A stretch of 64,000 nucleotides of DNA from Squalus acanthias (lineage: Eukaryota). The notes under the pieces were generated by a model, which saw only the letters and a list, made by a program, of their open reading frames with translations, ran no database searches and was not told the DNA's origin. Position numbers and translations under genes: made by a program. The stretch is from NCBI GenBank assembly GCA_030390025.1, contig JASTWF010000334.1:372001-436000 (forward strand), given 5' to 3'. The first letter of the stretch is position 1, and each line of letters starts with the position of its first letter. Positions 11,681 to 57,612 of this stretch are shown one piece after another.

Positions 11681-12396
11681 TCAATTGATTGAAGTTACCC
11701 ATCACAATTACCTTCCACTTTTCACATCACCTTTTAATCTGCAGTCAACCCCTAATGTTCATTCATTGAGATCTAACCAAGGCAGTTCATTGTGTAACGT
11801 TTCACCTCCCACAGCATCAACTTGTTAACTTCCTCTGTGTCCCTGATATAAAGCCACATGATCTCCAGATAGCAATTCTATCTAAATTAAATTAAACTGA
11901 ATATACACACATAAATATTAGCAGTGGTCTGTCATTATGATAAATCTGTCAGTGTGGGCGTGGTCACTTTGCAGTGATGTGGACTGCAACATCTGTATTG
12001 ACATCAGCTGTATGGATAAAGGTTGGGGAGAAGAGGGGAAACAATGCCAGATAGCCCACAGAACATTCAACCACAATACCAGCCCAGTGTCAGCTGATGC
12101 ACAGAAGCTGCTGAAACTTCAATCTGGTGGTTTGAAGCCATTGAACCCCCATGAGATTGTTCCCCAGTATCCAGTGCCAGCGTCCCACTATTCACTTAAT
12201 CCACAGTGAAGTTTGGAGTCAGTCCATATCACAAACTCATGGACTTATAACAGCAGGTTGTATGTTTTATTGTTCACCTTTAGCAAAAGAACAGAATGTT
12301 TCAACATTAAACATATTACATGGAGCGACAGAACTGAATATAGTCAATGTGAAAAGGTGATAAACAAAAAATGGTCGGTTTTATTTTTATTTGAAG

Positions 12397-13213
12397 TTGT
12401 ACTGCCGAGCACTGGCTCCCGGCAAGCATCTTGTCTCCATACAGTCGCAAGAACAGATCGAGTTCATTGGACAGATGATGGGCTGGATTTTCTGACCCCC
12501 ACGGGTGTGTACGAGATGTGTACGCACCTGTTGGAGCCTCGCTAGAGCCGGTTTCAGGCGTGCGAAGCACATGCGCTAAAACCTGGCACTTGCGATCTGT
12601 CAAGAATCCTCTTGACAGATCCACCGCCTGCCCAGGAGAAGGACCTCCGCGGGTGGAGAGTTCCGCTTTCTGCAGAACCTCCGCCCGCTGAAAACCTTTA
12701 AAAATCTTACGCCGTGTAAGGCCTGCTTTTACCAGCATAAGAGTTTAAAAAAATAAAAAAATAAAAATTTTCACTCATTTATAATTAAAAAATACTTTAA
12801 AAAAAGGTAAGTTTATTTTTAGACCCATAAAAAACTTTAATTATTTTTTTCAAAAAATTACATTTTTGTTTAAAATATTTAATTTAATGTCATTTTAACT
12901 AATTTCAAATACATGATTTAAAAAAAAATTATTTAATGTTTAACTGTTTTTAAATGTGATCCCCATTCATACTTTTGACAGATCTGTGCGTAGAGACCTG
13001 TCAAAAGTGTGAAGGGGGATTCCCTTCTTTGATTGGTTCCCCAGGGCCCATGTGATCCCAGGGACCTCTGCGCAGACCAGGAGAGGCCCAGGATCGGAAG
13101 TGTCAGGACCGACATCTGCCCGCAGGAAGCCTCTGATCGGAAATTCAGGGCCGATTTATGCAACAGAACAATCAGATCCTCCGACTTGAATCGGTTTGAC
13201 TGACTTATACAAG
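12397..13213 (+). pseudogene. Dead duplicate of lectin exon A, split by a MITE: LYCRALAPGKHLVSIQSQEQIEFIGQMIYATEQSDPPT*IGLTDLYK
   Basis: 12397-12479 plus 13156-13213 gives exactly 141 nt after removing the insertion and one GAT copy. TGG->TGA at 13187-13189 and donor GT->TT. Flanking intron is homologous to that of 31242-31382. Confidence 0.92.
12480..13152. mobile_element. Non-autonomous PIF/Harbinger-type element (673 bp) inserted in the pseudo-exon
   Basis: Imperfect TIRs GGGCTGGATTTTC / GAAATTCAGGGCC, 3-bp TSD GAT, AT-rich centre, no coding capacity. Confidence 0.8.
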
Positions 13214-13234
13214 TTAATGTTGTCTGAGTTGTTA

Positions 13235-14640
13235 GAATAGAATCTTACAGCACCGAAGGAGGCCATTCGGCCCGTCATGCCTGTGTCAGCTCTTTGAAAG
13301 AGCTGTCCAATGTAGTCCCACACCCTGCTTTTTCCCCATAACTCTGCAAATCAGTCTTCTTCAAGTATATGTCCAATTTTGAAAGTTCCTTATGGAATCC
13401 GATTTCACCACCCTTTCAGGTAATACATTCCAGATCTTAACCCTCTGTGTGAAGAAATTTCTCCTCATTTCCCCTCTCGTTCTTTTGCCAATTATTTTAA
13501 ATCTATGACATTTGATTACCGAACCACTTGCCAGAGGAAATAGTTTCTCCCTAGTTGCTCTATCAAAACCCCTCATAATTTTGAATACCTCTATTAGATC
13601 TCCCCTTAACCTTCTCTGCTTGAAGAAGAACAATCCCAGCTTCTCCAATCTCCCCACATAACTGAACTCCCCCATCCCTGGTAAACCTCCTCTGAACACT
13701 CTCCAGGGCCTCGACATCCTTCCTTAAGTGTGGTGCCCAGAGTTGCCCACAATACTCCAGCTGAGGCCTAACCAGAGATTTGTAAAGGTTTAGCATGACT
13801 TTCTTGTTTTTGTATTCAATGCCCCTATTTACAAAGCCAAATATCCCATTCGCTTTCTTAACTGCCTCATCAACCTGCCCTGCCACCTTCAAGGATTTGT
13901 GAAGATGCATCACCAGATCCCTCTGTTCTTCCACCCCCCTCAAAATAGCACCGTTTAGATTATACTGCCCCTCCACGTTGTTTCACCCAAAGTGCATCAC
14001 TTCACACTTATCCGCATTAAATTGCATCTGCCATGTGTCTGCCCATTTCACCAATCTGTCTATGTCCTCCTGAAATTGCTACTATCATGTTCGCTATTTA
14101 CTATAAGTTTTGTACCATCCGCAGACTTTCAAATTGTACTCCCTATGCAAGTCCTCGGTCTAGAAATTCATCTTGGGCGCAGGCGTAAAACAGGCGGTAT
14201 TGGATCGGCCGCCCGTTATACGCGAAGCCTGATAATCAGTTCCATCGACTGCAACAGAAGTGAATATCAGGCGCGGTGTATAATTGGCGGCCGATCCGAT
14301 ACCGCCTGTTTCGCGCCACCGCCCGAGATGAATTTCTAGGCCCTGGTCATTTATATACAACAAGAAAAGCAATGGTCCTAATACCGATCCCTGGGGGACC
14401 CCACTGCATACTTCTCTCCAGTCAGAAAAACATCGCTGCGGGACCTTATCGAAAGCCTTCTGAAAGTCCAAATACACCACATCCACTGTTTCTCCCTTAT
14501 CTATTCTACCAGTTACATCCTCAAAAAATTCCAGTAGATTAGTCAGGCATGATTTCCTATTTGTAAATCCATGTTGACTTTGTCCGATCCTGTCACTGTT
14601 TTCCAAGGGCTCTGCTATTACATCTTTTATAATGGACTCT
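13235..14640 (-). mobile_element. CR1 3' fragments co-duplicated with the lectin exon. Interrupted by a MITE and by the Harbinger; continues at 18816-19045.
   Basis: ORF2 peptides 13361-13976 and 14160-14606. ataatggactc|tag...tag|cattttgccc restores continuous CR1 sequence. Confidence 0.85.
14157..14342. mobile_element. 186-bp palindromic Harbinger-type MITE
   Basis: TIRs GGTCTAGAAATTCATCT / AGATGAATTTCTAGGCC extend into arms of ~70 bp. 3-bp flanks CTC/CTG. Confidence 0.88.
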
Positions 14641-15140
14641 AGGGGGGAAAAATTCAGTTGGTTGCGCCTCCCGTTAGCGCCTTAAGAGGGCGCTAATGGG
14701 GCGCAAAGCAGCTAGCGCCCGGGCGCAGCGATGTTTGCGCCGCTCGCGAACTTAACTAGACATTTTGCGGCGGCGCTAAACTTTATCGCCGCGATCTCCT
14801 GCGCACGCAGATTGTGACGTCATACGAGAGTGCAACACCCTTGTGGCGCCCCGGAGCAGAATTTCAGTGGCGCCCCCATCCTTACCACCTGGCGCATCCA
14901 ACGACCGGTAGAGTGGAACGCTATCAATCGCTGTGGGGCTGGGGGGGGGTGCTATTTAAAGGGGGCCTCTTCCTCTCTTTCTCTGTGGTTGACATTTTTG
15001 CACCACTCGTTCTGAGAGAGAGAGAGAGATGATTCGGAGAGAGAGAAAGAGAGACTTCTGCATTGAGTCAACGCTGTGTGAGGTAGTTTTGGCTACTCAT
15101 CCTAACTTCGCTGGTACTTTGGTTTCTGGCCTTCATAACT

Positions 15141-16171
15141 TTGCTTGCTAAGAGATATGGGGGCTGCACAGATGGGGGGCGTCGTCCTGCGCCAGCTGAA
15201 TCGAGGAGACAGAGACGCAGAGAGAGAGTGGCAATGATGGCCAGATGGAGGAGGGCCAACAGGCGTCTGTACAGGAGAGCTTACCCTCCCAGGGTATATC
15301 GTGAACAGCTCTCCTACATTCATATGTCTGAGGAGCAGTGTCTGCGAAGGCTGCGCTTCAGCAAGGAGGTGGTCACTGAGCTCTGCCACCTGCTGCAGCC
15401 AGATCTGCAGCCTCTACTGAGGACCAGGACATCTCTGTCAGTGGCAGTGAAGGTCACAGTGGCTCTGAACTTTTATGCTACTGGCTCATTTCAATCTGCT
15501 GTTGGGGACATCGCCAATATCTCCCAGTTCGCGGTGCATTGCTGCATCCGGAAGGTCACAAATGCCCTCTTTAAAAGGAGATGAGAGTTCATCTCTTTCC
15601 CCATGACCCCAGACAAGCTGCAAGAACGCACTCTGGGCTTTGCGAGGATAGCGGACTTCCCCATGGTGCAGGGCGCCATTGACTGCACGCATGTGGCTTT
15701 GCGTGCTCCGCATGAGAATGCAGAGGATTTCCGGAACAGAAAGGGGTTCCATTCCTTGAATGTTCAGTTGGTCTGTGACTTGCTGTCAATGCCCACTATC
15801 CTGGCAGCTGCCACGATGCTTTCATCCTGCGCCAGACTACTGTGGCAGAACTTTTCGAGGCACCGCATCAGCCAGTTGGTTGGCTTCTCGGGGACAAGGG
15901 GTATCCACTGAGCACCTGGCTGATGACACCTGCTCCGTACGCCCAACACCCCTGCTGAGCTGCGGTACAACGAGAGCCATCAAGCTACCAGGAACATCGT
16001 GGAGCACACAATCGGCGTGCTCAAGCAACGGTTCCGCTGTCTCGACCATTCTGGATGAGCCCTGCAGTACTCGCCTGAGCGAGTTTCCAACATCGTAGTT
16101 GTGTGCTGCATGCTGCATAACATGGCAATCCTCAGGACCCAGCCAATGCCACCAGGCCTTGGAGCACCACC

Positions 16172-16202
<31 letters not shown>

Positions 16203-16301
16203 GAGGAGGATAATCAGCAGCAGCACCAAGGCGTGAGGACAGCCCACAATGGTGAAACTGCAAGGGCCGTCCGTCAGCGGCTGATAGCAAGCCGCTTCTA
16301 G
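15141..16301 (+). pseudogene. Harbinger (HARBI1-like) DDE transposase, disrupted
   Basis: Motifs [71 protein letters not shown]. Stops at 15582 and ~16057, deletion/frameshift at ~15780, frameshift at ~15932. Start codon uncertain. Confidence 0.93.
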
Positions 16302-16612
16302 GCCCCTGCTGTGGAAATGGCTTCTGCCATTGAGAACAGCATGAATGAACCCAACACGCAACCCCTAAGCCGGCCAAGGCACCAATGATTCCAAACCCCA
16401 AACATGTATATTTTGAGTACCAAAACTTATTTATTTTACAAACTCTGTGTGTGTCATTTCTTCATGACAAACTCATACAAATAAACACAAAAAAACAGTC
16501 ATTACCATAACTGGTTCTCACAACCTGGAGATCATGTGCAAAACACTCAACAAAAGTTTGACCTCGAACCTCGGCCTTTAATAAAAAAATGACCAGCATT
16601 TTGTCACACCTC

Positions 16613-18456
16613 CTACATCGAGGGTGAACTCCTTCCCGTGTGCCCTTCCCCGCTTCTTACCCTACTGCTCCTCCGCAATGGGACCTCAGTGGCTGCAGCA
16701 AGGCTGGTGGAAGGCTGCTGACTGTCAGGCCCTGACAATGCAGATGCCCTTGAGGGACGGCCTCGACCAGTTCTGGGCCTGGAGGGCCCGGCTGCAGACT
16801 GCACCAACTCTGCATGGGCGGCAGCAGTCTGTCCTACAGGCGGTGGCAACTGCAGTGGAGAAGTGACAGTGGTGGCAGCAGGAATGCTGTCATCTTGAGC
16901 GAGGACAGCAACTCCCTGCTCGACCGGCACACTGGCACTCCCACGGGGCAGCACCTCAGCATCCGGAGCAATCTGCTGGAGCACAGATTGCTGGCCTGCT
17001 GCGGCGCGGTGAGAGCCCCGGGGAAATGTGAACGAACCAGCGAGGATGGCAGCAGACAGTGCTCGCGTGGCCTCAATCTGAGTCTGCATGAGAGCAGTCT
17101 GAGATTGAATTGCAGCACTGAGCTTCAGTGTCGCATCCGCCTGCGCTGCAGCGAAGTGCTCCACACTACTTGCCAGTGCTTCAATGCATTCGGGCACCCT
17201 ACCCACTGCAGCCATGAGCTCAGTGTGCATGCCCACCGCCTGGGTGTTCATTTCCGCGATCAGCCGCTCCTCCTCTGCGTCCAGTGCAGCAGGACTCGCT
17301 GGCATACTCTCCCTCTGGGGAGAAGGTCCCCGAGCTTCCCTACCCCCATCGCGTTGCTGCAGCTCGCTGGGTCCTGGAGCTTCACCCTCATCAGACCCTT
17401 CCCCCCTGCTCCCCTCCAGGGAAGGCGTGTTCCCAGTGTCGGCATGGGCTTCCTCGGGAGAGGGTGGCACTGATGCTCCGGCTTCCTCTTCCTCCTCGGC
17501 TGCAGCTTCACTCCCACTGGCAGCTTCAGGGCCCGTCTCCTCAGCTGGTGAATCACCAGCTGAAAGCAGGGAGGTACAAGAGTGGCTTTAGCGTGAGGAC
17601 AGGGTGGCAGTAAGGGAGGAATAAGTGCAGCGAGTTAGTAAGTTGGATTGAAAGTGTCAAAGGCTGGTGTTGTGAGGGACAAGTGGAAGGACAGAGGACA
17701 AAAAGGTGATGACCTTACCATTGCTGTCCAGAACGGGGTCGGCGTCTCCAGTGGCGACGGGACCGATCACCCGGCTTGCCACAATCCTGTGGACGCGCTC
17801 CTCAAGATCGCTGAGGGGTTGCAGCTGAGGCCGCCCTCCACCTGTCCGTTGCTGCTGTCTCCTATTATGCGCCAGCTTGGCTTGCAAGAAAAAGGACGGC
17901 GTCTGAGTAAACATACAGCCATGGTCTTGCCTGATGTGCCTCCCATAGGTGAATAGCCCTTACTGTATACAGCCATGGTCTTGCCTGATGTGCCTCCCAT
18001 AGGTGAATAGCCCTTACTGTATACAGCCATGGTCTTGCCTGATGTGCCTCCCATAGGTGAATAGCCCTTACTGTATGCAAAGTATGGAATGTGTGTGTGT
18101 GCTTCATGAAAGGGCCATAGGTGTTGGATGAGTGTTGTTAATTGTGGTTTTAAGACCCTCTGGCCATAGAGTGAGGTTGAGATGGAGGGATGGAGAGGTA
18201 TTGCAAAAAAGCCACTCACCCTGACGACCCGAGTGAGGTCGTTGAACTTTTTCCGGCATTGGACATGGGTCCTGGGCACCATGCTCCTGGAGGAGACGCG
18301 CTGAGCCACCTCCCTCCACACTCTTCTGTAGTCGCGCGGCAAAGGCCTCCTGCCACTCTCTGGGTACAGTATTGCTCTTCGGCGCTCCACCGCGCCAACC
18401 AGAGCATCCAAGGCCCGCTCGATGAAGTGCTCAGCTTGTTCTCTCACCCTCTCCAT
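16613..18456 (-). CDS. Harbinger Myb/SANT-like DNA-binding protein, 3 exons (18456-18220, 17881-17719, 17559-16613; ~448 aa)
   Basis: Exon 1 F....L..LV..V...W.EVA.....QCRKKFNDL|gtgagt. Exon 2 AHNRRQQQRTGGG..|gtaag. Exon 3 follows ctttcag| in frame to TAG. The exon-2 acceptor reads ttgcaa rather than ttgcag, so it may be inactive. Confidence 0.8.
17914..18075. repeat. 54-bp unit tandemly triplicated in intron 1 of the Myb gene
   Basis: TACAGCCATGGTCTTGCCTGATGTGCCTCCCATAGGTGAATAGCCCTTACTGTA x3. Confidence 0.95.
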
Positions 18457-19496
18457 CCTTGGCTGGAAAATGGATTCACAGGTCTCTCCAGGCCGAGATT
18501 CAAGGCTGCAATGAGCAGGGTGTGGCTGGGGAGCAAGATCGCCCCCCCCCCTTTAAGAACTGGCCGGCGCCAGTGTGTCTGTGTTCCCTCGCTAACTGGC
18601 AGCACCTGCGCTGCGCTCGCGCTCTGAGTTAGCGCCTCACTCCTCGGCCTTTGCACCTTAAGACAGGTGTGCAGCGCCTGATTTAGCGCTCCAATCACCT
18701 CCCGGGGCGTTAAAAGTGAAGTTTCCAGTCAGTGGCGATAATTAGCGCCATGTGCTAATTTTTGCGCCCGGACGATATTTGCGCCCCAAACGGGGCGCGA
18801 CTGAATTTTTCCCCCTAGCATTTTGCCCACTACCGATGTCAGGCTTACCGGTCTATAATTCCCCATTTTTTCTCTACCACCTTTTTTAAATAGTGGGGTT
18901 ATATTCGCTACCCTCCAATCCATGGGAACTGTTCCAGAGTCTATAGAATTTTGAAAGATGACCAGCAATGCATCTACTATTTCTAGGGCCACTTCCTTAA
19001 GTACCCTAGGATGTAGATTATCAGGCCCTGGGGATTTATCAGCCTTGTGCATTGTGCATTCCCCTAATGCCTTTCTGTCATGTGCCTGTGCCTGTCCTAG
19101 TGCTCCTACGAAGTACTACCCCAGTGGCTGCAGCATGGCTGGTGGAAGGCTGCTGACTTTCAATGGCAAGACTGCACATGGCCTTGCAGGACGCCCTTGA
19201 GCAGCTCTGGGCGTAGAAGGCCCGGCTGTAGACTGCAACACCTTGGCATGGGCGGCAGCAGTTTGGGCTGGCTGGCTGACAGGCAACAGCAAGGGCACTG
19301 GTGGAGTGGCAGTGGTGGAAGTATGAATGCTGTCATCCTGAGAGAGGACAGCAGGTTCGTGCTCCACGGATCCACTGCCACTCCCCCTCTCCAAAGCCTT
19401 CACGTCCTTCCTAAAGTGTGGTGCCCAGAATTGGACACAGTACTCCAGCTGGAGCCGAATTAGGTTTAGCATAACTTCCTGGCTTTTGTACTCTAT

Positions 19497-22400
19497 GGGC
19501 TCGATTTTACCAGGCCTGAGGAGATAGGTTTGGAGGCGTGTGAGTTGTCAAAATCGCAAAAAATGGCGGGTGGGTCCGATCCCGCCTCTCAGCAATTTTC
19601 CCACATTCGTGGTTTCAGACCCCGTTTCCATCCCGCCTCCATTTTGAGAGGCCTTTCTGATTTTAACACATTTTCCCCGTACTGCACGTCTCCTCTGGAA
19701 CACGCCAGTTAATCCTGGCGGCCTCACAAGTGGATTGCTTACTAACAGCTGCAGCTCCACCATTAAAAAGGAGTTTTCACCAATGATTACTTGCAGGTGG
19801 CAGAACTTTGTTGTCTAAGGTCTGGGGGAACTTTTAGCAGGCCTACTCATTGTTGTGGAAGTTTGGAGCCTGACACCCATCTCCAGTGTGACCTCCTGGG
19901 AAACCCCTCTCCCCACCTTGACTGAGCGCTTCCTCAACTGAGGTATATACCAGAAGCATGGGAACCATTTATTTGCTTTCCTCCTGGACATCAGATTTGG
20001 ACGAAGACCAGCCGTGGCAGCAGCAGAACCCTGAACAACAGCAGCACCAACAGCAGGAGCAACAACAGGAGAGCCAAGCTGCTGCTCATCCACCTGAAGC
20101 TGCACAGGCCAGAAGGCGCCAGCGCGCGACCACATTGCTGCCCGAGATGCAAGGGATGCACTCATGTTGGCCAGATTTGCTTAGCCTGCACAGTCAAACA
20201 CTTTTGCCTCACACCTTCTTACCAGAGCATCGACAATGGACAAGAACCTACGGATTCCTGTCACTCTGACCACCATACTGACAATTGCAAGTCGCCCTAA
20301 GCCCTCAATGTGGAAGTCCCATTTGCGAAATGACACAGGCCACAACTTCAACAGTTTGCTATCAAATCTGTTTATCATCACAATTCAAGGATGGCTTGTC
20401 AAAAATCAATACAACAGAACACCCGAGTGACTACCCTTGTGACTACTTGTGCTTTATCTTCCTCTTATGTGTGCTCCTACGTGGTGCTTCCCCTGTGGCT
20501 TCAGCAGATGTGGAGGCCCCTTGCTCACTTTCTTGCTGCTCCTGTCTCAACACCTTTGGCGGCCGTCCTCTGGGGTTGCAAACCTGTGAGGGTTCGGCAG
20601 TCTGCTGCTCCTGTGGCTGTGCAGGGGCTGAGATGCCCATCTCAGTTGGGTGAGGACTCTGACCGAGGACTTTGCAGTGGCATGGTCATGTGAGCGCTTG
20701 GAGAGGAGCCCCCACTTCCTTGTTGTCTGCCACCAACAACCCTCTCATGGGTCAGCCACACTTCAGAGCTAGCAAGTGGCTTGACTGCACCTTGCTGCAC
20801 TTCAGGGGGGCCATGAGGACCCGTTTCTGCACTGGAAGTCCTACTCCAGAGGACTTCCATGAAGGTCTGGTTTATCTGCTCAATAGCTGACTATCGCTCC
20901 TCAAGAGAAGTCAGTCTATTCTAAACAATGACCATGTTTTCAATACCCTGGCGGCTAAGCTACTCCATGGCCGTAGCCATCCCTTCCTTTACCATAGCCA
21001 TCCTCTCCTCTACGGTAGCCAGCCTTACCACGGAGGTAGTCATCCTTTCCAGGGAGGTTGCCATCCTTTCCATGGTGATGCGTTCATGTGCCAACACCTC
21101 CACAAAGGCTCTGCTCATGTTAGCGATGGACTCCTCCATTCGCTCCACACTCGCAGTGATCCTGGAGACAAAACCTGCCAGAGACTCCTGCACCTGTTGC
21201 TGGAGTTCCAGCATCGCTCTCCTTCTGGATGGACCCGGAGGCACAGGGTCGACATGCAGCTGAGCCAAGCTGGCAGAGTCCTGCGCCCTCCGACGAGGAC
21301 TCTCCACTGCTGTCCCTGTCTCCACCATCTGCTGATGTTTACTTGTGATCTGTGATACACCAGGTGACAACACTACTCTATCTCGCGAAGGTCCCACCGA
21401 TGTGTGAGTGTCTGCGCTGGTGGTGGGTGCGCTGAATTCTGCTGACGCTGCACCCTCAGAGGCTGCAGCTTCCTCTGAGGAGTCTTGAGGCTCAGGCTGT
21501 TCCTCCTGCACAGTGGGGAACGGGGGCTCTCGATGGTCCTGTGGGGGAGTAAAGGAAAGAGTTAGAGATATGAGGTAAAGGTTACATGCACATTGAATTG
21601 TGCAGATGATCATAAGTCAATCTGTTAGAGCATCCGAATCATTATCAGTCTCTCATGCAATGTCAATGACAGAGATGTAAAACTATTCTGTCACCAGCTT
21701 GCTCTGATGCGCCCGTCTGTCCGTCCCCCACTTGCGAATCGTCCTCCACTCCGGCGATCTCCAGGGTCGCCTCCTCCGAATTGGTGAGCTGGGCTACTGA
21801 GGGTGGCCCTCCTCCTGTCCTTGCTCTTTCCCTCTTATTGTGCGCTCTCTTTTCCTGCAATGAGGGACTCAAGTGGAGTTTGAGTGAGAATGAAGGAGTG
21901 AGTGTAGAGAATCTATAGCATAGATGCTTAGAAGGAGACAAAGGGCCCTCCCTGTGTGTTGTAAGTTGTTGTCATTGCATCACAGTGATAGGGAGTGTGA
22001 GGGCTGCATGGTCGAATAGTTAAGTGAATGTGACCATCGAGAGAGAGGGAATGGGTAAGGGTGCAGGGATGTAAGGGTTAAGTGGGATGTGGAGGAAGAG
22101 GTTGGCAAAGCAGAGTGCTGGTGATGAGAGGCAATGGGGATCAGATTGAGGGTGATGGGAATGTCATACTCACTTTTCCTGTGTGGAGAAGGTCATGAAA
22201 CCTCTTCCTGCACTGCAGCCAGGTTCTGCTGCACATAGAAATTGCGTTTACCTCTTGGGCCACTTGCAGCCACACAGCTTTAGTCTGCTGGGGAGGCTTT
22301 TTCCTCCCTGAGGAAGGGAAGAGCACCTCCTTATTTACTCTTGCTCCCTCCACCAGAGCTTGGAGGGAGGCCTCATCGAATCTTGGAGCACACTTTGGTC

Positions 22401-22683
22401 TACTGGTTGACACAATTGCTGAAGGAAGCACTCAGAACAATGGACATAAAGTTTAAAGGCTGAAAAAGAAGCAAGGCTGATTGCAGGCCTTAAATCCAGC
22501 AGCATTGATGACATCATCGGAGGCGACTTTCTGTATGAAAAGACTCATTGGGCCAGGGGTTCCCATATGCTGGAAATCAAGTGCCCAATTAGGGGAAAAT
22601 CGTACTTTTGTCCCACTTCACATCAGAGTCGGGATCCTGACACGACGACCACCTGACACGCCCCCAATGGCAAAATCGAGCCC
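19497..22683. mobile_element. Harbinger internal-deletion derivative (3187 bp). Myb/SANT gene remnant on - (exons ~22415-22174, 21854-21695, 21538-~20443); transposase mostly deleted.
   Basis: TIR GGGCTCGATTTT(A/G)CCA and TSD TAT inside a CR1. Peptides APRFDEASLQALVEG..WLQVA..WLQCRKRFHDL and EKRAHNKRERARTGGG. Confidence 0.92.
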
Positions 22684-25600
22684 TATGCCTCTATTGATAA
22701 AGCCCAGGATCCCATATGCTTTATTAACTGCTTTGTTAACCTGTCCTACCACCTTCAAAGATTGTGCACAAGCACCCCCAGGTCTCTCTGTTCTTGCACC
22801 CCCTTTAAAATTGCACCATTTAGTGTGTATGGTCTCTCCTCATTCTTCATAACAAAATGTATCACCTCACACTTCTCTGCATTGAATTTCATCTGCCACA
22901 TGTCTGCCCATTCCACCAGCCTGTCTATGTCTTCTTGAAGACTTTTACTATCTTCACCATTTACTACACTTCCAAGTTTCATGTAATCTACAAATTTCAA
23001 AATTGTGCCCTGTACCTCCAAATCCAAGCCATTAATGTATATCAAAAACAGCAGCAGTCCTAATACTGAACCTTGAGGAACGTCAATGTATACCTCCCTC
23101 CAGTCCGAAATACAGCCACTCAGAACAACTCTCTGTTTTCTATCCCTAAGCCAATTTTGTAGCTATGCTGCTACTGCCCCTTTTATACCATGGGCTTCGA
23201 TTTTGCTAACAAGCCTAATATGTGGTACTTTATCAAATGCCTTTTGAAAGTCTATATATACAACTGCCCTCATCTACCCTCTCTGTTACCTCATCAAAAG
23301 ATTTGCCCTTAACAAATCCGTGCTGGCTCTCCTTTATTAGCCCATGCTTGTCCAAGTGGCTGTTAATTTTCTCCCGGATTATTGTTTCTAAAAACTTCCC
23401 CACCATCGACGTTAAACTGACTGGCCTGTAATTGCCAGGTTTATCTTTCTCCGCCTTTTTGGACAAGGTATAACATTTACAATCCTCCAGTCCTTTGGCA
23501 CCACCCTTTATCTAAAGAGGATTGGAAGATTGTGGCCGGCACCTCTGCAATTTATACCCTTACTTCCCTCAGTAACTTAGAAGGCATCGCATCTGGTCTG
23601 GGTGACTTAACCACTTTAATTACTGCCAGCTTGTCTAGTACCTCCTCTTTATCTATTTTTATCTCATCCAGTATTCCAGCAACCTCCTCGTTTAGCTTTG
23701 GCAAAGTCCTCTTCCTTGGCAAACACCGATGGAAAGTACTCATTTAGTACCTCCGCCATGCCTTCTGCCTCCACCAACAGTTCTCAATTTAGGTCCCTAA
23801 TTGGCCCCGCAACTCCTCTGACAACCCTTTTACTGTTAACACAAAAGCAAAATACTGCAGATGCTGGAAATCTGAAATAAAAACATAAAATGCTGGAAAT
23901 ACTCAGCAGGTGAGGGAGCATCTGTGGAGAGAGAAACAGAGTTAACATTTCAGGTCAATGAGAAAGGCCATTGACCTGAAACGTTAACCCTTTTACTGTT
24001 AATATGCCTATGGAAGACTTTTGGATTCCCTTTTCTGTCTGTTAACCAATCCTCAATCCATGCTAATATATTGTGAAGGAATAAGCCATATTCAGAAAAA
24101 TACACCATTCTATGAAAATAATTCTGGCCTTTGTAACATGACAAACTCGGCTTGAAAATCTAAAAGCCTCAACAATGGAAAAGCTGTAAACCCCATACAG
24201 GCTATTGAGATAAGATAAGTTGTTGACACTGAATCAATAGCGTTGTTGAAACAGAAGCTTGGAGGCTCCTGACATCTGAGTCTTTGGAAAAAAGACAATG
24301 GTACACCCAGTTAAGATGTTTTAAAGTACACTTTGTAAACAAACACAGAAAATTAAGGAACATATGCCTTCATGGGAATGGCATCAAGTGGGGGAGACAC
24401 CAGCCGTCACATTGTTTTTGTGTTGAACTTGGAACACCTAGGAGACACGATTCTGTGTTGCAACCAGCTGAGGTGACTTAAGAATTGCATAGAAGACCTT
24501 GGTAAGAATGACATCAAATAGATGCACCTGCTGGTCACATCGTTTTTATGAAAATCTTCGAACACCTAGGGTAGCGACATCAGTCTGCAATGCTACCAGC
24601 TGAGGTGACTGTAAGAATAGCTGGGGTCAACAGAAAAATGACTAGAGATAATTAGATTACATCAGCAGAAAACTTCAAAGGAAATACCACTGGAAAAGGG
24701 TATAAAAATTGGACTTTCAAATGGCATGATAGATTCGCTGTAAAGAGGCAAAGTGATTTTTGGCTTCAGAGCTAGCTTTGTAAGTCTACAACTCTTTGTA
24801 TCTCGGGGATCAAGTTAATGTATTTGATTTTGGTGGATATCCTGGAATAAACTAAGAACTGTAAAACTAGCGAAGTTAAGATTTGAGAATAAGGATCGCT
24901 GATAATAGAATTGTAAGATTTTAGTGTTTGGAACTATTAATGTTGCGATTGAAACACTTACTGTAATTATATGTCGGTTCTTTAATAAATCTATATATTT
25001 TTAGAATTGTCTCACATAATACTTCTGTATCAAACTCGCAAACTCAATCTCTATACACTCTTTGGTGAGGAGTTGCAGAATTCTGAGGGAGTTTTCCGGA
25101 CCCTCATAATATCCGGAAGGTTACAGTCTAGCTAAACTTATTAAAAGTGCTATCTGGAGGACGGTAACATCTTCAGGTTGTTCCTTTCCTTTAGGGAGAG
25201 ATAGTCTGGACCTTTAGACCCAATTAGGGGTCTTTAGGATTCGGCTACCTCAAACTTTAGTTGAAGGTGAACGTCTGGGGAATATGCCTGATCCGGGGTA
25301 GCCGTAAAGGGGCTAGGACTAGTAATTATCCTTTCAATATTACCCCCAATCCCATGAGCCCTAATCTTGTGTAACAGCGATTGTGTGGCACCTTATCGAA
25401 GGCCTTTTGAAAATCCAAATATACTACATCCATTGGTTTCCCCTTAGCTACCCTGCTAGTTACACCCTCAAAAACCTTATCAATAGATTTGTCAAACACG
25501 ATTTCCCTTTCATAAAACTGTATAGACTCTGCCTAATCATATTATGATTTTCTACATGCCCTGTTATCACGTCCCTAATAATAAATTCTAGCATTTTCCT

Positions 25601-25940
25601 GAATGCTGATGTCAGACTAACTAGCCTATAGGTCCCCGTTTTCTCTCTCCCTCCTTTCTTGAATAGCTGGGTTACATTAGTTACCTTGCAATCCACTAGA
25701 CTGTACTAGAATCTAGGGATGAGGAGAATTTATTTTACGCTGAGAGTTGTTGTGAAAGGATGGTGGAAGCACATTGAACAGTAACATTCAAAGGGAATTG
25801 GAGAAATACTTGAAGGGGGAAAAATTGCAGGACTCTGGAGAAAGAGCTGGTGAGTGGGACTAATTGGAGAACTAATTCAATGAGCCGGCACAGGCACAAT
25901 GGGCCGAATGGCTTCCTGCTGTACGGTATGATTCTAATGA
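22684..25940 (-). mobile_element. Degenerate CR1 fragments (- 19385-19496, 22684-24071, 25337-25720; + 3' end ~25720-25940) hosting a solo LTR
   Basis: ORF2 peptides NYRPVSLTS, SQHGFVKGKS, KFNAEKCEVIHF. Confidence 0.8.
24072..25336 (+). mobile_element. Solo LTR, family X (1265 bp)
   Basis: TG...CA ends, 4-bp TSD ATAT within CR1, TATA-like gtataaaaa at ~24700, AATAAA at ~24984. Confidence 0.88.
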
Positions 25941-27561
25941 CCCCCGGCTCACATTCATTGGTCAGTAATGTCCCCCGAATACTTGGGTCTTCACAAAAAT
26001 AGGATGCTGCCAATGTAGCAGTAAAGGAGGAGATAGTAGCGATAGTGGATAGGATAAAAATGGCTCTTAGAAACTGCACTGGAGGTTGTGGTGGAAGAGG
26101 TGGACAGGAGGAGAGAGTTTCCCTATCCACAGGAGGCCCTCCAGACAAACTCTGCAAAGGCAATGGGAGCAGATAGCTGTGGGGGTCAAGGCCAGAATTC
26201 AAGCCCTGAGGACCTGGATGCAGTGCTGCAAAAAGTTCAATGATCTCACATGAGTGGTCAAGGTCATTGAATTCATCTTCAAATTCCATATCCCACCAAC
26301 TGCACCACTAGCCTCACACACTGCTCAATGCACCACAGCCCCATCACTCACCTACCAACAATCTCTATCAAACAGGATCCATACCTCACATCATAGCTTC
26401 ACCTCACCCTTACACAGTTACCACTGCTGCAAGCCTCACACCCACATCTCACACCTTGCACACACTTGCCAGCTGTACAAGCATCAAACAAACATATTGC
26501 ACCACACTCACTGAAACACTTCTCTCTCTCTTGCAGGACAAGTTGATGCATAACCGGAGGCAGCAGCAGCTAACTGGCGGGGGAGAGGTGCTCCTGCATC
26601 ACCTTACCCCGATGGAGGAGATGGTAGTCGCCATCATTGGAGCAGCATCACTGAGCCGGTGGCCAGCGGTGGAGCTGAATCCATTGATATCCTTCTCACA
26701 TCCCGATTCCCCATCATCCAATAATGTCTTTTGATTTAAATGCTGCAGATGGTGTGAGCATGCACCTCTTACTTTCCCCCCTCACCACACCGCAATCCTA
26801 CCCTTGTGCCTTCTGCTTTCAGATACCCAAGAACTGCAACCTGGCCAGACAGTGGTGGCAGAGTAACAGGTCTAAGAGGAAGAAAGCAGTGATGATGAAG
26901 ACACAGCACCGTCACTCGATTTCACACTCGCACCAAGAGCTCAGATACCGACACTCTGCGATCTTTAGAAGATAGCTTAGACATGGGATCTGCACATGGT
27001 GAGCCACCGGGCACGAATGGCCTGCAGCCAGGGCAGGGGGCAAGGGTAGCGCAAGTGCCAACTCCCCAGAGGGTGAGGCTACACATGAGTTCTGCTGCAG
27101 AGGGCTCAGATGAGCACTTCAATGGAGCAGAATACAGAAGAAGGTGATGGGTATGCACAATAGAATGCTTGGTGCATCGGCAGGCCTGCCAGAAAGCCTG
27201 TCTGCTTTGCGCAGAGCTTGGAACCCATCCTTTCCAGCATGGAAGTGATGACAAACTCCATTAGCACACTTGCGGACCCAACCAGGATTCTGCGTCTGAT
27301 GGCCGAAGTCTCAGTTTGCTCCCACGCAAGCTCAGACTGCTGCCATCATGGCTGCGGTTACCAGTGTTCAAAGGGGTTTGCAGGGTGTCACAGCAGTTCA
27401 GCAATCTGTCCTCCAGGAGATTACTGGGATTACTGAGGCGCCACCCCCGGGGGAGAGGCAGTGGTTCCGTGGAACACGAAACTGCTGTCCTCTCTCAGGA
27501 TGACAGCATTCGTCCTGCCACCCCTGCCACTCCACCAGTGCCCTTGCTGTTGCCTGTCATG

Positions 27562-27792
27562 CAGCCCCTGGTATCCTGGCAATATTTAACCATCAATCAA
27601 CATCACTAAAACAAATTATCTGGTCATTATCACATTGCTGTTTGTGGGAGCTAGCTGTGCGCAAATTGGCTGCCGTGTTTCCTACATTACCACAGTGACT
27701 ACACTTCAAAAGTACTTCATTGGCTGTAAAGTGTTTTGCGACAGCCAGAGAAAGGCGCTACAGAAATGCAACTCTTTCTTTTTTCTTTCTTT
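27562..27792 (+). mobile_element. 3' part of a probable Deu-SINE-type (SacSINE1-like) element
   Basis: ctggtcattatcacattgctgtttgtgggag..cattggctgtaaag..aaaggcgcta..aaatgcaa followed by a (tttc)n tail. Family assigned from memory. Confidence 0.5.
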
Positions 27793-28058
27793 CAGTACGC
27801 CAATGTTCTGCTTGATGATATTTTGTGTGGCGGCATGGCTTTCGTTGTATGAATGCTGCCCACGTGTGCGTGGGTTGCGAGCGGAGTCATGAGCCATGTT
27901 GTTAATGGATAGCCCTTGTCGCCCAGTAGCCACCCACTGGTTTGTCGTGGTGGCTAAAAATGCAGCTGCCAGGATACCGGGCATTCACCTGCATGATTTG
28001 CTGAGTGTGGTCACACACCAGCTGGACACTGAGGGAGTGGAATGTGTTTTGGTTGCGG

Positions 28059-29329
28059 TGAAGGGATAATTACTAGTCCTAGTCCCTTTAGGGCTACCCC
28101 AGATCAGGCGTATTCCCCAGACGTTCACTTTCAACAAAAGTTTGAGTTAGCCGAATCCTAAAGACGCTTAATTGGGTCTAAAGGTCCAGACTATCTCTCC
28201 CTAAAGGAAAGGAACAACCTGAAGATGTTACCGTCCTCCAGATAGCACTTTTAATAAGCTTAGCTAGACTGTAACCTTCCGGATATTATGAGGGTCCGGA
28301 TAACTTCCCCAGAATTCTGCAACTCCTCACCAAAGAGTGTACAGAGATTGAGTTCACGAGTTTGATACAGAAGTATTATGTGAGATAATTCTAAAGATAT
28401 ATAGATTTATTAAAGAACCGACATGTCATTACAGTAAGTGTTTCAATCGCAACATTAACAGTTCCAAAAAGAGAACGCTATTACAATATTATTATCAGAG
28501 ATCCTTATTCTCAAATCTTAACTTCTCTACAGTTTTACAGTTCTTAGTCTTATTCAGAATATCCACCAAAATCAAATACAGTACCGCTGATCCCCGAGAT
28601 ACAAAGAGTTGTTGACTTACAGAGCCTGCCTCTGAAGCCGAGAATCGCTTTGCCCCTTTACAGCGAATTTATCATCCCATTTGTAAGTTCAATATTTGTA
28701 CCCTTTTTCAGTGGTATATCCTTTGAAGTTTTCTGCTGATGTAAGCTAATTATCTCTAGTCATTTTTCTGCTGACCCCTGCTATTCTTACAGTCACCTCA
28801 GCTGGTAGCAATGCAGAATTATGTCTCTCTAGGTGTTCCAAGTTCACCATAAAAAACAGTGGAACAGCAGGTGCATCTATTTGATGTCATTTTTACCAAG
28901 GTCTTCTGTTTGTGTCTCTTTACGAATTGTAAATTAGAACACCTCAACCAGGGTGATCTATGCAATTCTTAGTTACCTCAGCTGGTTGCAACACAGAATC
29001 ATGTCTCCTGTGTTTCATTTGATGGCATTTTTTTGAAGGCATATGTTTCTTAATTTTATGTGTTTCTTTCCGAAGTGTAATTTAGAATACCTTAACATTA
29101 TTTTCTTTCCAAAGCTTCAGACTTCAGGAGCCTCCAACCTCCTGTTTCAATAAGGTTGTTGATTCAGTGTCAACAACTTATCTTATCCCAATAGCCTTAA
29201 TGCTGTTAATAATACAGCTTCTCCATTGTTAGGTTTTTAGATTTTCAAGCCCAGTTTGTCATGTTTTAATTAGGCAAGAATTCTTTCATAGAATGGTGTA
29301 TTTTTCTGAATATGGCTTATTCCTTCACA
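28059..29329 (-). mobile_element. Solo LTR, family X (1271 bp), inverted relative to 24072-25336
   Basis: Reverse-complement homology over the full length. 4-bp TSD GCGG. Interrupts a Harbinger transposase at [18 protein letters not shown]. Confidence 0.88.
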
Positions 29330-31241
29330 GCGGTACATCTCAGAGTTTAAATACAGCGCCCACGAAGCAACATGCGTAGTCAATGGCACCCTGCACCATG
29401 GGGAAGCCTGCTATCCTCGCGAAGCTGTGTGCTCGCTCCGCCTGCTGCTCTCTGGCCAGAGAGTAGGCAATGTAGTCAGCTCTCTTGGAGTACAGAAGCT
29501 CAGTTATCTCCCTCATGCAACAGTGCACGGCAAACTGGGAGATGTTGCAAATATCTCAGCTCCAGCCTGGATTGAGCCCGACACATAAAAGCTTGGCAAT
29601 GCGGTCTTCGCTCTGCTCTGAGGTTGCAGTTGTGGCTGCAGCAGGTAGCATATTTCAGTGAGGACGTCTGACACGTAGGGGGCGATTTTGCCAGCCCTGG
29701 GGAGGCGGGTATGGAGGCGGGAATGCTGGGAAAATGGCAAAATTTGGGGGCGAGTGTCCAACCCGGCCCCAAGCCATCTTCCTAGGAGGCAGGTAGCCGT
29801 CCCGCGCCGGGTCCCATCTCCTTGGAGGCGGGAAGGGATTAAAGGCCTATTAACTGCCTGTTAACAGGTAGTTAACAGGCAGAAAATAGGATTATCCCCT
29901 TTTTGCCCTCACAAGTGCGGGCTTCCCGAAGGCTCCGAAACCCGCCAGCTCAGCGAGGCGAGTAGAGGGTCGGCGGGGTGCAAAAGTGTGGTGTGAAGGT
30001 AAGTGATGGGTGCAAGAGTGTAGAGGTGAGTATCTGAGGTAAGTGCATAGTGTTAGTAAAAGTGTACTTACCTTTGTTTCTTCCTGCAGGCTTCAGTCGG
30101 TGTGTATACAGAGAGTCTTGCACCTCCGTGTTGCAGAAGAGAGATGGCCGGTGCATTCTCAGATGCAACAACCATCTCATTTCTGTAAAAGAAAGAAGTT
30201 TGATGAGGTCTTGAATTCAAGACCTCATCAAACTACAGAAAATGTCAGTCTTTGACAGCTTCACAGAGCTGTCAAATGATGACAATTCATCTGTCAAAAA
30301 TTTTTGACAGATGAAACGTCATACGCTGACGTTCTCTGCAAACTGCTTTCCCTTAATTGCCCTGCTAAGCCCGCTGGGCGGGCTTAACAAGGTCAATCAA
30401 GGGTAAATAGCGTGGGTTGGCCACAAATCGATGGAGGTGGGACATCGACCCGCCAAGCAGCAGTCCCGCCTCCAACGCGCCCCCATTAACTAAATCTCCC
30501 TCACTGTTACTCGCTGAGGTTCAGGTAGGAGTATTGCTCCCTGAACACCCTGTGCATATTTGATGCTCCTCCTCCTCCTCCTCCCTCTGCCAGCCAGTCC
30601 TGCTCTGTGTCAGCTCTGCTCATTCTCCCTGTCATGCTGTAGGCCAAGTGGAATGCCTACTAGTGCACCCATGTCTTGGAGCAAGTGGTTTGTGCTGAAT
30701 CCTTGAGGTCAGGACAAAGTCCTTCAGCACCTGCCACACCAATCCTTGTAGACTTGAGCAACTTTAAGTAACTGTACAAACCACCAAACACTTCTATAAA
30801 CTCAGCAACAGCCAGTGGAAATCAACCAGCAACTAACCCTTTAAATAGCACTGGTGGGGGGGTCCTTACTGCTGCTGAACGCATGTTCAGCTGTGCGAGC
30901 TTAAGAGAGGCCGTTAGCTGGAGCGTTGAGCTCCAAAATGGCAGTTCGGGCATCAAATCAGTGTTACACGTTGATTGACATCATGATCTGCCTACTCTGC
31001 ATACTTCCGGCGCATGCTCCCTGCGCCCGTGCTAACGCCCTGCCCAATATGGCATCTGGGGCAGCCTGTACCAGAAGTGTGTGTGCGCGCCGCGCATTCC
31101 ATTTCAGAATCAAAATGGCTCCTGTAGCGCCCAAACAATGGGCGCTATGGAGCTGAATGTGGTGGCCATGATAAGGAACTGAATATGGTTAATGTAAAAT
31201 AGTGACAAACAAAAAATGGGCTGTTTTATTTTTATTTAAAG

Positions 31242-31382
31242 CTGTACTGCCAAGCACTGGCCCCAGGCGGGCATCTTGTCTCCATTCACTCGGATATACA
31301 GAACATGTTCATTGGAGAGGTGATAAATGAAATAGACCCAACAGATTCTCCGGCTTGGATCGGTTTGAATGACTTATACAAG
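31242..31382 (+). CDS. C-type lectin domain gene, internal exon A (141 nt, phase 0/0): LYCQALAPGGHLVSIHSDIQNMFIGEVINEIDPTDSPAWIGLNDLYK
   Basis: T-rich acceptor ...ttttatttaaag| and donor |gtaacg. Open frame with CTLD helix-1 Cys, HLVSIHS and WIGLND motifs. Confidence 0.93.
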
Positions 31383-31404
31383 GTAACGTTGTCTGAGTTG
31401 TTAG

Positions 31405-35480: not shown

Positions 35481-36330
35481 TATTCAGCATCATTCTTTGT
35501 TGGGTTGCAACATACTGATTAAGAAAGTTCTCCAGCACACATTTTAGGAATTCTTTACCTTCCTTGCCCTTTACTCTGTTTCCCACCACAGTCTAAATTA
35601 GGGTAATTGAAGTCCACTACTATTACTGCTCTGTTATTTTTATATTTCTCTGAAATTTGCCTATAGATTTGCTCCTCTATCTCCTTCTCACTATTTGGGT
35701 GTCTATAGTAAACATCCAGCAATCCAACAGCTTTTTTTCTATTCATTAACTCTAATCAAATATATTCTGTCTTTGAACCCTCTAGTATAGAAACATAGAA
35801 ACATAGAAAATAGTTGTGGTCACTGGTACCACAGGCAGATAATTCCATCCAGGATATCCCGGCTAGAAACATAGAAACATAGAAACATAGAAAATAGGTG
35901 CAGGAGTAGACCATTCGGTCCTTCGAGCCTGCACCGCCATTCAATGCGTTCATGGCTGAACATGCTACCTCAGTACCCCATTCCTGCTTTCTTGCCATAC
36001 CCCTTGATCCCCCTAGTTGTGAGTATTATATCTAACTCCCTTTTGAATATATTTAGCGAACTGGCCTCAACAACCTTCTGTGGTAGAGAATTCCACAGAT
36101 TCACCACTCTCTGGGTGAAGAAGTTCCTCCTCATCTCAGTCTTAAATGGCTTCCCCTTTATCCTTAGACTGTGACCCCTGGTTTTAGTTTTCCCTAACAT
36201 TGGAAACATTCTGCCCGCATCTAATTTGTCTAAACCAGTCAGGATTTTAAACGTCTCTATAAGATCCCCCCTCATTCTTCTGAACTCCAGAGGATACAAG
36301 TTCAGTTGATCCAGTCTTTCTTGATATGAT

Positions 36331-45340: not shown

Positions 45341-45452
45341 GAGAGGACTTACTTGTGGGTTGATGGAACTAAATATGATTTCAGAAAGTGGAATGTGGGA
45401 GAACCGAATAATGCCTGTGATAAGGGAGAGGACTGTGCACGAACTAATTCCG
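45341..45452 (+). CDS. C-type lectin domain gene, exon B (112 nt, phase 0/1): ERTYLWVDGTKYDFRKWNVGEPNNACDKGEDCARTNS
   Basis: Acceptor tttctctcccacag| and donor |gtcagt. Contains the WxDG, W..GEPNN and EDC long-loop motifs. Phase is compatible with exon A. Confidence 0.93.
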
Positions 45453-57412: not shown

Positions 57413-57486
57413 GTTTACCCACCAATTGGAATGATGCGCCCTGTGATTTTCAATATCCTTACCTCTGCTCCTACAAACTCCACTGA
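57413..57486 (+). CDS. C-type lectin domain gene, terminal coding exon C: (G)LPTNWNDAPCDFQYPYLCSYKLH*
   Basis: Acceptor ttcttttttcag|. The phase-1 join with exon B completes GGT. Contains WND..C......LC and ends at TGA 57484-57486. Confidence 0.93.
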
Positions 57487-57606: not shown

Positions 57607-57612
57607 AATAAA
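57607..57612 (+). promoter_or_regulatory. Polyadenylation signal AATAAA of the lectin gene
   Basis: About 120 nt after the stop codon, followed by GT-rich sequence (tgtgtgtttg). Confidence 0.75.

Follow-up and report, generated by a model that had tools for sequence, protein, structure and literature searches.

The window, a 64,000-nt stretch of the Squalus acanthias genome, carries exons A, B and C of a lectin gene, with exon A present twice, as a broken upstream copy (A1, 12397-13213) and an intact downstream copy (A2, 31242-31382; Table 1). The encoded domain belongs to the C-type lectins (PF00059), as seen from a profile match together with the WIGL, EPN and WND motifs and conserved cysteines in the translations, which we take to be the hallmarks of this domain. 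Scored alone, A2 matches Pfam Lectin_C (PF00059) with an E value of 4e-4 and 21.5 bits, just under a cut-off of 22.6 bits that is meant for the whole domain, and a family-specific profile raises this to 69 bits. Exons B and C are singly without a Pfam match and score 31.5 and 28 bits only with family profiles. A2, B and C have open frames and canonical splice sites, and an AATAAA poly(A) signal lies behind exon C at 57607-57612. The predicted product is a secreted single-domain Ca2+-dependent lectin with an EPN site, presumably mannose-type. With introns of 14 and 12 kb in this gene, a distance of more than 12 kb to an upstream 5' exon would fit.

Table 1 Features of the lectin locus (positions in the window)
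Feature	Position	Strand	Remarks
Ancestral intron 5' of A1	12301..12330	+	missing before A2; 30/30 letters equal the loose end of the CR1-less paralog contig (run X6 record 9)
Upstream intron next to A1	12331..12396	+	66 nt, common with A2; acceptor AG intact; 57/66 identical to 31176-31241
A1, 5' piece	12397..12479	+	83 nt; 27 bits against exon-A profile
MITE-like insertion	12480..13152	.	673 nt; imperfect terminal inverted repeats; parts 5-123 and 216-356 match inverted
A1, 3' piece	13156..13213	+	58 nt; TGA at 13187-13189 (codon 39)
Old CR1 LINE, 3' part, A1 flank	13229..14433	-	72 differences/789 columns to copy 2
Deletion junction	14434..14436	.	old common CR1 joined to a different, younger CR1 without 3' end
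Stretch between copies	14437..31175	.	nested CR1, Harbinger, SINE-like and solo-LTR-like pieces
Upstream intron of A2	31176..31241	+	66 nt with acceptor; homology to A1 and other paralogs ends at 31176
A2, intact exon A	31242..31382	+	open frame, AG/GT-bounded; spliced A2-like exon (7 differences) in RNA-type contig
A2's copy of common CR1	31398..32966	-	internal deletion at 32183/32184; extends further 5' than A1's copy
Exon B	45341..45452	+	112 nt, phase 0/1, EPN motif; 31.5 bits (family profile)
Exon C, coding part	57413..57486	+	WND motif and stop; 28 bits (family profile)

A family of shark lectins

Judged from its sequence, the gene is a member of a family of apparently secreted single-domain shark lectins with many paralogs on one chromosome. 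Heterodontus francisci lectins (XP_067915850, 852 and 856; annotated 'lectin-like') have the 47-residue exon A at 64-67% identity and exon B at ~50%, their exon C ends in the same CSYKL motif, and there, as here, many paralogs occur per genome. Nine Heterodontus genes (XP_067915847-862) and 3 more share one 75.3-Mb contig, and one 50.8-Mb contig carries 6 Heptranchias entries; which entries form one gene, and which genes are neighbours, is deduced from the labels and the order of the accessions. PMC10707392 cites a skin lectin from Heterodontus japonicus. The product of the window gene itself did not turn up among the database protein matches, and a word-based protein search with the 47-residue exon gave 2 candidates, neither significant. 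REG/lithostathine, REG3 and snake lectin chains match exon A weakly (E 5e-4 to 9e-3); at ~21-23 bits, these matches indicate family-level likeness only, and nothing in the shark gene suggests a venom role. REG genes have a symmetric exon at the corresponding position.

Further paralogs of this lectin gene are present in the organism's sequencing runs, where contigs from 4 of 9 runs were compared over the A2 stretch (the RNA nature of X7-X9 is putative). The depth of 228 for a collapsed paralog contig, as compared with 20-25 for A2-specific contigs, hints at roughly ten more copies and is not a copy number. In run X7 an A2-like exon is spliced between a 5' exon and a B-like exon, and in X8 it connects to the B-like exon, both runs being putatively RNA. 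Splice junctions were found for the A2-like exon and for another paralog's exon. The typical end of the preceding exon occurs only in the A2-like contig, not in the window. This spliced contig differs from the window at 7 sites over the exon-A stretch and at 4 within the opening 31 nt of B; it is thus not the window's own haplotype and may be an allele or another paralog. The A2-like contigs hold four further non-synonymous differences.

Two copies of exon A and the stretch between them

A1 and A2 are both 141 nt long and in phase 0/0 (83 + 58 nt in A1; A2 open), as the first-pass annotation had reported, and 113 of the 141 sites are identical. The lesions claimed for A1, namely a MITE, a TGG->TGA change and loss of the donor, are all present as a 673-nt element, a TGA at codon 39, and TT at the donor position 13214-13215. 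A GAT target duplication (12477-12479 and 13153-13155) flanks the MITE-like element, and the total insert amounts to 676 nt (the element plus one GAT).

The upstream intron had also been described as common to both copies. This holds for its last 66 nt only (57/66 identical) and fails for the rest, as the ancestral upstream intron is retained by A1 and absent from A2. The claim of a common downstream CR1 was borne out (13214-14433 versus 31383-32213). This old CR1 inserted 15 nt behind exon A and is missing from other paralogs, whose contigs diverge from the window sequence at the insertion point. A common A at 31213, T at 31279 and the CR1 itself, as compared with paralog contigs of runs X1, X6 and X7, make A1 and A2 sister copies, each closest to the other among the copies compared. 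Together, the 113/141 identity, the common CR1 and the derived bases show two homologous exons from one ancestral exon, as in a tandem exon duplication.

The A1 flank ends in a deletion junction at 14434-14436, which, like the numerous paralogs, was missed in the first reading. Measured against a CR1 at 58.5-60 kb, the old piece is 68% and the young piece 92% identical, and the two are 108 nt out of register, which led us to reject a duplication via in-register recombination of two CR1s. Beyond the junction point, copy 2 carries on with the old CR1. Repeats matched at other places in the window make up 47% of the stretch between the copies (14437-31175), and the Harbinger there encodes a Myb/SANT domain. 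No collinear match was found between this stretch and either flank, and no continuation of the ancestral intron behind the CR1 was found in the window.

Searches of the whole window agree with the earlier statement that neither a second B or C nor any 5' exon lies between the copies. A second exon B or C was not detected by blastn, at a sensitivity that recovered simulated decayed copies in 19-25 trials out of 25, whatever the setting, up to a divergence of 30%. Exon-wise profiles for signal-peptide, linker and first lectin-domain exons found none anywhere in the window, the 22-nt 5'-exon end from the RNA-type contig had 0 matches there at 3 mismatches, and motif scans for a 5' exon gave no credible match. 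With tblastn, using 39 short homologs and 12 shark proteins, only A1, A2, B and C were prominent among the matches listed. As a putative single transcription unit, A1 and A2 have no other exon between them, and the 5' exons lie outside the window.

Branch-wise evolution of the two copies

In an effort to separate the changes on each branch, the 28 differing sites were polarised with a single outgroup, the CR1-less paralog contig (run X6 record 9). Ten fell on the A1 branch and 15 on the A2 branch; 3 were assigned to neither. A column counted as conserved if at least 80% of 20 family members agreed in it, which gives a chance share of 19/47. In these branch tests, with their small counts and one outgroup contig, 4 of 7 residue changes on the A1 branch hit conserved columns (G10, H16, N21, W39; p 0.45 versus chance), as compared with 0 of 9 on the A2 branch (p 0.014), a difference with Fisher p 0.019, or 0.044 without the stop. 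The share of non-synonymous changes on the A1 branch (8/10) equals the neutral share. As A1 changed at the chance rate and A2 spared the conserved columns, A1 looks like decay and A2 like a selected exon; the counts of 4/7 and 0/9 are not what purifying selection acting on both copies since the duplication would leave. If A1 is taken to have been constrained for half of its branch, p is 0.07 (0.18 without the stop), and constraint for three quarters or more of the branch is rejected (p 0.011, 0.043 without the stop).

Exon A is more diverged than its flank (28/141 versus 81/855, p 0.0007; versus 57/490, p 0.017), at about twice the rate of a flank that is itself ~10% diverged. Most of the excess belongs to the A2 branch. 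The 10 changes of A1 are above the flank expectation in one of four settings (p 0.034), and under another the A2 excess is weaker (p 0.081). An early idea of positive selection on both copies was dropped after the changes had been polarised. Divergence along the flank is uneven (57/490, then 15/299; p 0.0014), which may reflect conversion between the copies. Residue changes cluster in codons 16-38, with p 0.009 for a range picked after the data had been seen.

Origin and fate of the duplicated exon

The best-fitting geometry is a single-exon duplication within one gene, favoured by the sister status of A1 and A2 and by the lack of any other part of a second gene in the intervening stretch. That A1 is the broken sister copy of intact A2, born by intragenic duplication and silenced early, is the reading we prefer, with a probability of roughly 0.55. 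The duplicated unit would have started 66 nt before exon A and run on into the CR1. Splicing would then have included both copies in frame and so doubled part of the domain core; such joint inclusion is expected from good splice sites in both, the long intron that separates them and a length that is a multiple of three. Loss of A1's donor would have restored a normal protein, although the order of lesions is left free in this scheme, and A1 would afterwards have taken up the stop, changes at conserved residues and the MITE. The gap between the copies would have been filled by transposons and trimmed by a deletion. A2 would have remained in use and changed at variable, probably surface, positions only, a pattern expected of a host-defence lectin under diversifying selection. 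Against this history stand a deletion of unknown size between the copies and the position of the 5' exons outside the window.

A weaker contender, to which we would give perhaps one chance in four, is a whole-gene tandem duplication in which deletions removed the first copy's B and C together with the second copy's promoter and 5' exons, leaving a fused gene with a dead first A. Whole-gene duplication is common in this lectin family, as in the Heterodontus and Heptranchias clusters and the further paralogs of this organism. The junction at 14434-14436 and the 5' exons outside the window are consistent with fusion by deletion, and two annotated Pristiophorus isoforms start in leftover A/B pieces of a paralog. 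However, at least two deletions would be needed: the intron of A2 is itself cut, at 31176, and the inter-copy stretch has no homology to A1's upstream 12 kb. Fusion would further predict constraint on A1 until the fusion, yet A1's changes show none.

The first-pass annotation had gone beyond a single-exon duplication, which stands as the best-fitting geometry, to propose the relic of a mutually exclusive cassette. Here, A1 and A2 would once have been working alternatives in one secreted lectin gene, giving two versions of a variable helix-and-loop surface, and A1 would have died later. As in the tandem exon duplications with mutually exclusive splicing treated in PMC5740500, PMC9013439 and PMC9741552, the shark pair consists of neighbouring, homologous exons that agree in length and frame and probably lie in one gene, and it matches the prediction criteria of PMC5740500 (same length, phase and frame, adjacency, homology). 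The greater divergence of the exon than of its flank, the clustering in codons 16-38, and a constrained phase of A1 lasting no more than half its branch are also compatible with this idea, and one annotated Heterodontus isoform without exon A (XP_067915855) indicates that the exon can be skipped. Nonetheless, we regard a former cassette as improbable, and the claim was left unsupported by A1's neutral-looking decay and the absence of exon-A swaps. The excess divergence lies mainly on the A2 branch, and A1 changed at conserved residues at the chance rate. By the criteria of PMC5740500, mutually exclusive exons call for usable splice sites and no in-frame stop in both copies, and A1 has the codon 39 TGA, the insertion and the TT donor. 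A further criterion is junction reads in which each exon bridges the other and none that link the two; the junctions found in contigs over the A2 stretch belong to the A2-like exon and to another paralog's exon.

Comparisons among relatives point the same way. Of 3741 pairs among 87 annotated proteins, 24 have near-identical flanks, and in none of these does exon A differ at more than one residue; the exon is swapped in 0 of 10 isoform sets. As motif splitting failed for 9 of 33 proteins, the swap test was repeated with a profile on 88 cartilaginous-fish proteins, among which no alternative exon A was found. Two full A regions occur in 0 of 72 proteins scanned for exon order, and two A matches in 1 of 88, as a partial leftover at the N-terminus.

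Mechanisms of exclusion were checked as well, and none was found among steric block, U2/U12 mismatch, frameshift and competing RNA pairing. At least 1.2 kb of common flank lay between the exons, which leaves no steric block, and the splice sites are ordinary GT-AG. Joint inclusion causes no frameshift (141 = 3 x 47), and this symmetry counts against exclusion, as the safeguard of a frameshift is lost (PMC5740500). No docking site common to both exons appeared among the 25 longest of 235 inverted repeats, these 25 all being transposon pairs. Working mutually exclusive cases are rare and mostly ancient according to the accessible text of PMC9741552, whereas the shark pair is young (~10% flank divergence) and has one copy with a stop and without a donor. 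Were the cassette reading true, the locus would offer an immune lectin with mutually exclusive exons that form a young pair, while described pairs are mostly ancient, and a route other than copying the whole gene in a defence family that diversifies rapidly; both copies may then still be intact in a close relative.

We consider two further readings very unlikely, to about the same degree. In one, A2 is a retro-copied daughter: the antisense CR1 behind exon A would have read through its tail and carried the exon and 66 nt of intron to a new site within the same intron, and the new copy would have replaced A1. The common unit is exactly the CR1 plus its 3' flank, the ancestral upstream intron lies at A1 and not at A2, and a twin pair of young CR1s in the window has 55 nt in common past the tail, one with a second tail outside, a transduction-like arrangement. 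Against this, position 31176 has a Harbinger-like end and no CR1 tail or poly(T). 3' transduction is a property of L1, and no paper on CR1 3' transduction was found by title or abstract start. In the other, the whole locus would be a partial duplicate lacking its 5' part (A1, A2, B and C without promoter) and the A2-like transcript would come from another gene, as the lack of a 5' exon in the window and the differences of the spliced contig in A and B would allow, but the open, canonically spliced A2, B and C with their poly(A) signal and the sparing of every conserved column on the A2 branch speak against it.

With an early-silenced A1 as the preferred reading, the dead exon copy is likely an ordinary by-product of a fast-changing gene family, not a former splicing switch. 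Tandem exon duplications affect ~10% of animal genes in a 2002 study quoted in the available part of PMC9013439. The locus neatly illustrates, on a small scale, what usually becomes of a duplicated exon: one copy dies and the other evolves, with branches separable residue by residue. In the open literature (titles and abstract starts, with subscription papers outside the search), nothing was found on this gene, its cluster or alternative exons in shark lectins, and the locus points to an expanded, fast-changing and apparently little-studied secreted lectin family. Accelerated evolution of coding regions is described for conger eel galectins in an excerpt of PMC3269628. The shark pair resembles such accelerated lectin and venom coding regions in an exon diverging at about twice the flank rate, and differs in that the comparison is between two copies of one exon, with the acceleration on the surviving branch and small counts.

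Two copies of exon A in a lectin gene

The DNA here is of the repeat-rich vertebrate type, with CR1 LINEs, Harbinger elements and a 33-bp satellite, and the nearest relatives of its lectin exons are cartilaginous-fish proteins, which makes a shark origin very likely. The duplicated exon reported in the first-pass annotation is real and correctly located, with one intact copy (A2) and one broken copy (A1). A2 matches the Pfam Lectin_C profile weakly and a profile built from shark relatives strongly (69 bits). The insert in A1 consists of a 673-nt element with imperfect inverted ends and a GAT duplication; codon 39 of A1 is TGA and the donor position reads TT.

Features of the lectin gene and surrounding repeats
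Feature	Position	Description
Exon A1	12397-13213	83 nt and 58 nt flanking a 676-nt insert
Exon A2	31242-31382	141 nt, open, phase 0/0, AG and GT ends
Exon B	45341-45452	
Exon C	57413-57486	followed by AATAAA
Young CR1, first copy	5748-9800	
Young CR1, second copy	35813-40311	
Harbinger, near-full	14643-18815	perfect 16-nt terminal inverted repeats, TAG target duplication
Solo-LTR-like element	24072-25336	1.27 kb
Solo-LTR-like element	28059-29329	1.27 kb, inverted relative to the other
33-bp satellite	45671-57088	about 344 copies

No second exon B or C was found in the window; at up to 30% divergence, the search picked up simulated decayed copies in 19 to 25 out of 25 trials. Neither a profile nor a 22-nt piece of a 5' exon from a contig detected a 5' exon (signal peptide, linker or first lectin domain) in the window. 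Second B or C exons, or 5' exons, between the A copies had been named beforehand as a finding that would contradict a single-exon duplication; none is there. The satellite occupies most of intron B-C, and a 4066-bp block including non-satellite spacer is repeated within its region (48700-50200 vs 52766-54266, 99.6%), which points to a very recent duplication or else to an artefact of assembly.

Flanks and intervening DNA

Behind both copies, at a distance of 15 nt, begins a shared CR1 whose two versions differ in 72 of 789 columns. Upstream, their likeness extends over 66 nt only. Of the shared flanks proposed earlier, the downstream CR1 is thus borne out and the upstream intron, beyond those 66 nt, is not. 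The far part of the CR1 (13700-14038 vs 31870-32183) is much closer (15/299 differences) than the near part (57/490), possibly through gene conversion between the copies.

The DNA between A1 and A2 is nested transposon sequence with no collinear homology to either flank. At 14434-14436, the old shared CR1 is joined, 108 nt out of register, to a younger CR1 without its 3' end, so DNA of some length has been deleted there. The Harbinger sits in a young CR1 and holds a Myb/SANT frame as well as a transposase-like frame that is broken. The overall identity of the solo-LTR-like elements is 84%, rising to 95% across a 410-nt stretch, and a 4-nt target duplication accompanies each. The young CR1 copies (98.6-99% identical, same orientation, 30 kb apart) flank the A1-A2 pair. 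Each extends 55 nt past a microsatellite tail, and the second has another tail outside, which may stem from a local hop or from 3' transduction. Being direct repeats, the two copies could cause deletion or doubling of the entire A1-A2 block.

Descent, selection and origin of the copies

Against other exon-A types, A1 and A2 share an A at 31213, a T at 31279 and the CR1, and therefore descend from one ancestral exon. The exons differ at 28/141 sites versus 81/855 in the flanks (p 0.0007), or versus 57/490 in the more diverged part of the flank (p 0.017). Polarised by a CR1-less paralog contig (record 9 of sequencing run X6), 10 changes fall on the A1 branch and 15 on the A2 branch, with 3 unresolved. 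In 19 of the 47 columns, conservation among 20 family members reaches 80% or more. Four of seven residue changes on the A1 branch hit these columns, as expected by chance, versus none of nine on the A2 branch (p 0.014; contrast between branches p 0.019, or 0.044 without the stop). In three of four settings the A1 change count is consistent with the flank rate, and in one it is higher; the A2 count is above that rate in three of four. Constraint on A1 over three quarters of its branch is rejected, and over half is compatible with the data. The simplest reading, limited by the single outgroup and the low counts, is that A1 has spent most of its existence as a pseudoexon and that selection on A2 accounts for the added A1-A2 divergence.

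We favour an intragenic duplication with early silencing of A1, at a probability of roughly 0.55. Structure, lesions, sister status and branch patterns are directly observed. The intragenic route requires one duplication plus the deletion at 14434-14436. We infer that, after the duplication, the splice sites of the two exons were equal, the distance separating them was at least 1.2 kb, and the length of each was divisible by three. If both were included, part of the domain core would occur twice, so that the loss of a splice site in one copy would be favoured or at any rate carry no cost, in whatever order donor loss, stop and MITE arose.

Fusion of two paralogs by deletion is appreciably less probable: it requires a minimum of two deletions besides a duplication, and it predicts a constrained period for A1, of which none is seen. 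It is still a serious rival, since this family frequently duplicates whole genes and the Pristiophorus annotation includes leftover paralog exons. The first-pass annotation's relic of a mutually exclusive exon pair was an over-interpretation, and we consider it unlikely: changes in A1 hit conserved residues at the chance rate, and none of the exclusion routes described in excerpts of PMC5740500 (splice-site incompatibility, donor-branch point distance below 50 nt, joint-inclusion frameshift, competing RNA pairing) is evident at A1/A2. According to a figure title in that paper, misfolding can also underlie exclusion, so the missing visible mechanism makes that reading less probable and does not remove it. 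Origin of A2 by CR1 transduction and a locus that is a 5'-less fragment are both highly improbable.

Tandem exon duplications are common (excerpts of PMC9013439). Substitution pairs that work are rare and, for the most part, ancient (PMC9741552, whose excerpts contain nothing on lectins or sharks). Our literature search found no paper on this lectin locus. A1 adds a new instance to an already known kind: it is a pseudoexon that arose when an exon was duplicated, here in a lectin family that is expanding.

Paralogs and the lectin family

Four of nine sequencing runs were compared with window 31170-31400 at 80% likeness. DNA run X1 contains an A2 allele with 2 differences, along with several further exon-A types; these depart from the window sequence exactly at the CR1 start, and hence are without that CR1. 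The intact CR1-less paralog exon in X6 has an upstream loose end equal to window 12301-12330 (30/30 letters), which places A1 in the ancestral intron and the cut in the A2 intron at 31176. In X7, taken as RNA by guess, an A2-like exon has seven differences, of which four, in codons 19-31, are non-synonymous; on one side it is joined to a preceding exon of typical form and on the other to a B-like exon (4/31 letters different from the window's B). The same 3' join occurs in X8, from the same study, and X7 also contains another, distinct exon-A type with a join to a 5' boundary. These contigs show that the organism has paralogs, and an A2-type gene appears normally spliced; the window's own haplotype was not seen in spliced form in the four runs over 31170-31400. 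Non-synonymous differences of the A2-like contigs (X7 record 13, X8 record 15) lie at window 31296-31333, and the four in this variable segment hint at ongoing diversification among alleles or very close paralogs. Accelerated coding evolution is known in marine lectins (excerpt of PMC3269628), and a shark skin C-type lectin is cited in an excerpt of PMC10707392.

The top single-domain match is Heterodontus XP_067915850 (66% over exon A). The look-ups gave, on one 75.3-Mb contig, nine Heterodontus genes with accessions in the range XP_067915847-862 and a further three, as well as six Heptranchias entries on one 50.8-Mb contig; accession order suggests that these genes neighbour one another. In both genera the proteins are secreted, about 185 residues long, and contain a single lectin domain. 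Exon A was found in 87 of 88 cartilaginous-fish proteins. None of the 24 pairs with near-identical 30-residue flanks on both sides (of 3741) differed by more than one residue in exon A, and none of ten isoform sets swapped it, with one skipping it. Annotation in this sample is incomplete and covers the clusters reached by the protein searches; the missing alternative exon A is an absence within that sample only. An annotated isoform of P0162 (XP_067915855, Heterodontus francisci) omits exon A in frame. In Pristiophorus japonicus, annotated isoforms P0291 and P0191 begin in leftover exon A/B pieces of another paralog that splice into the main gene, so orphan exons exist elsewhere in the family.
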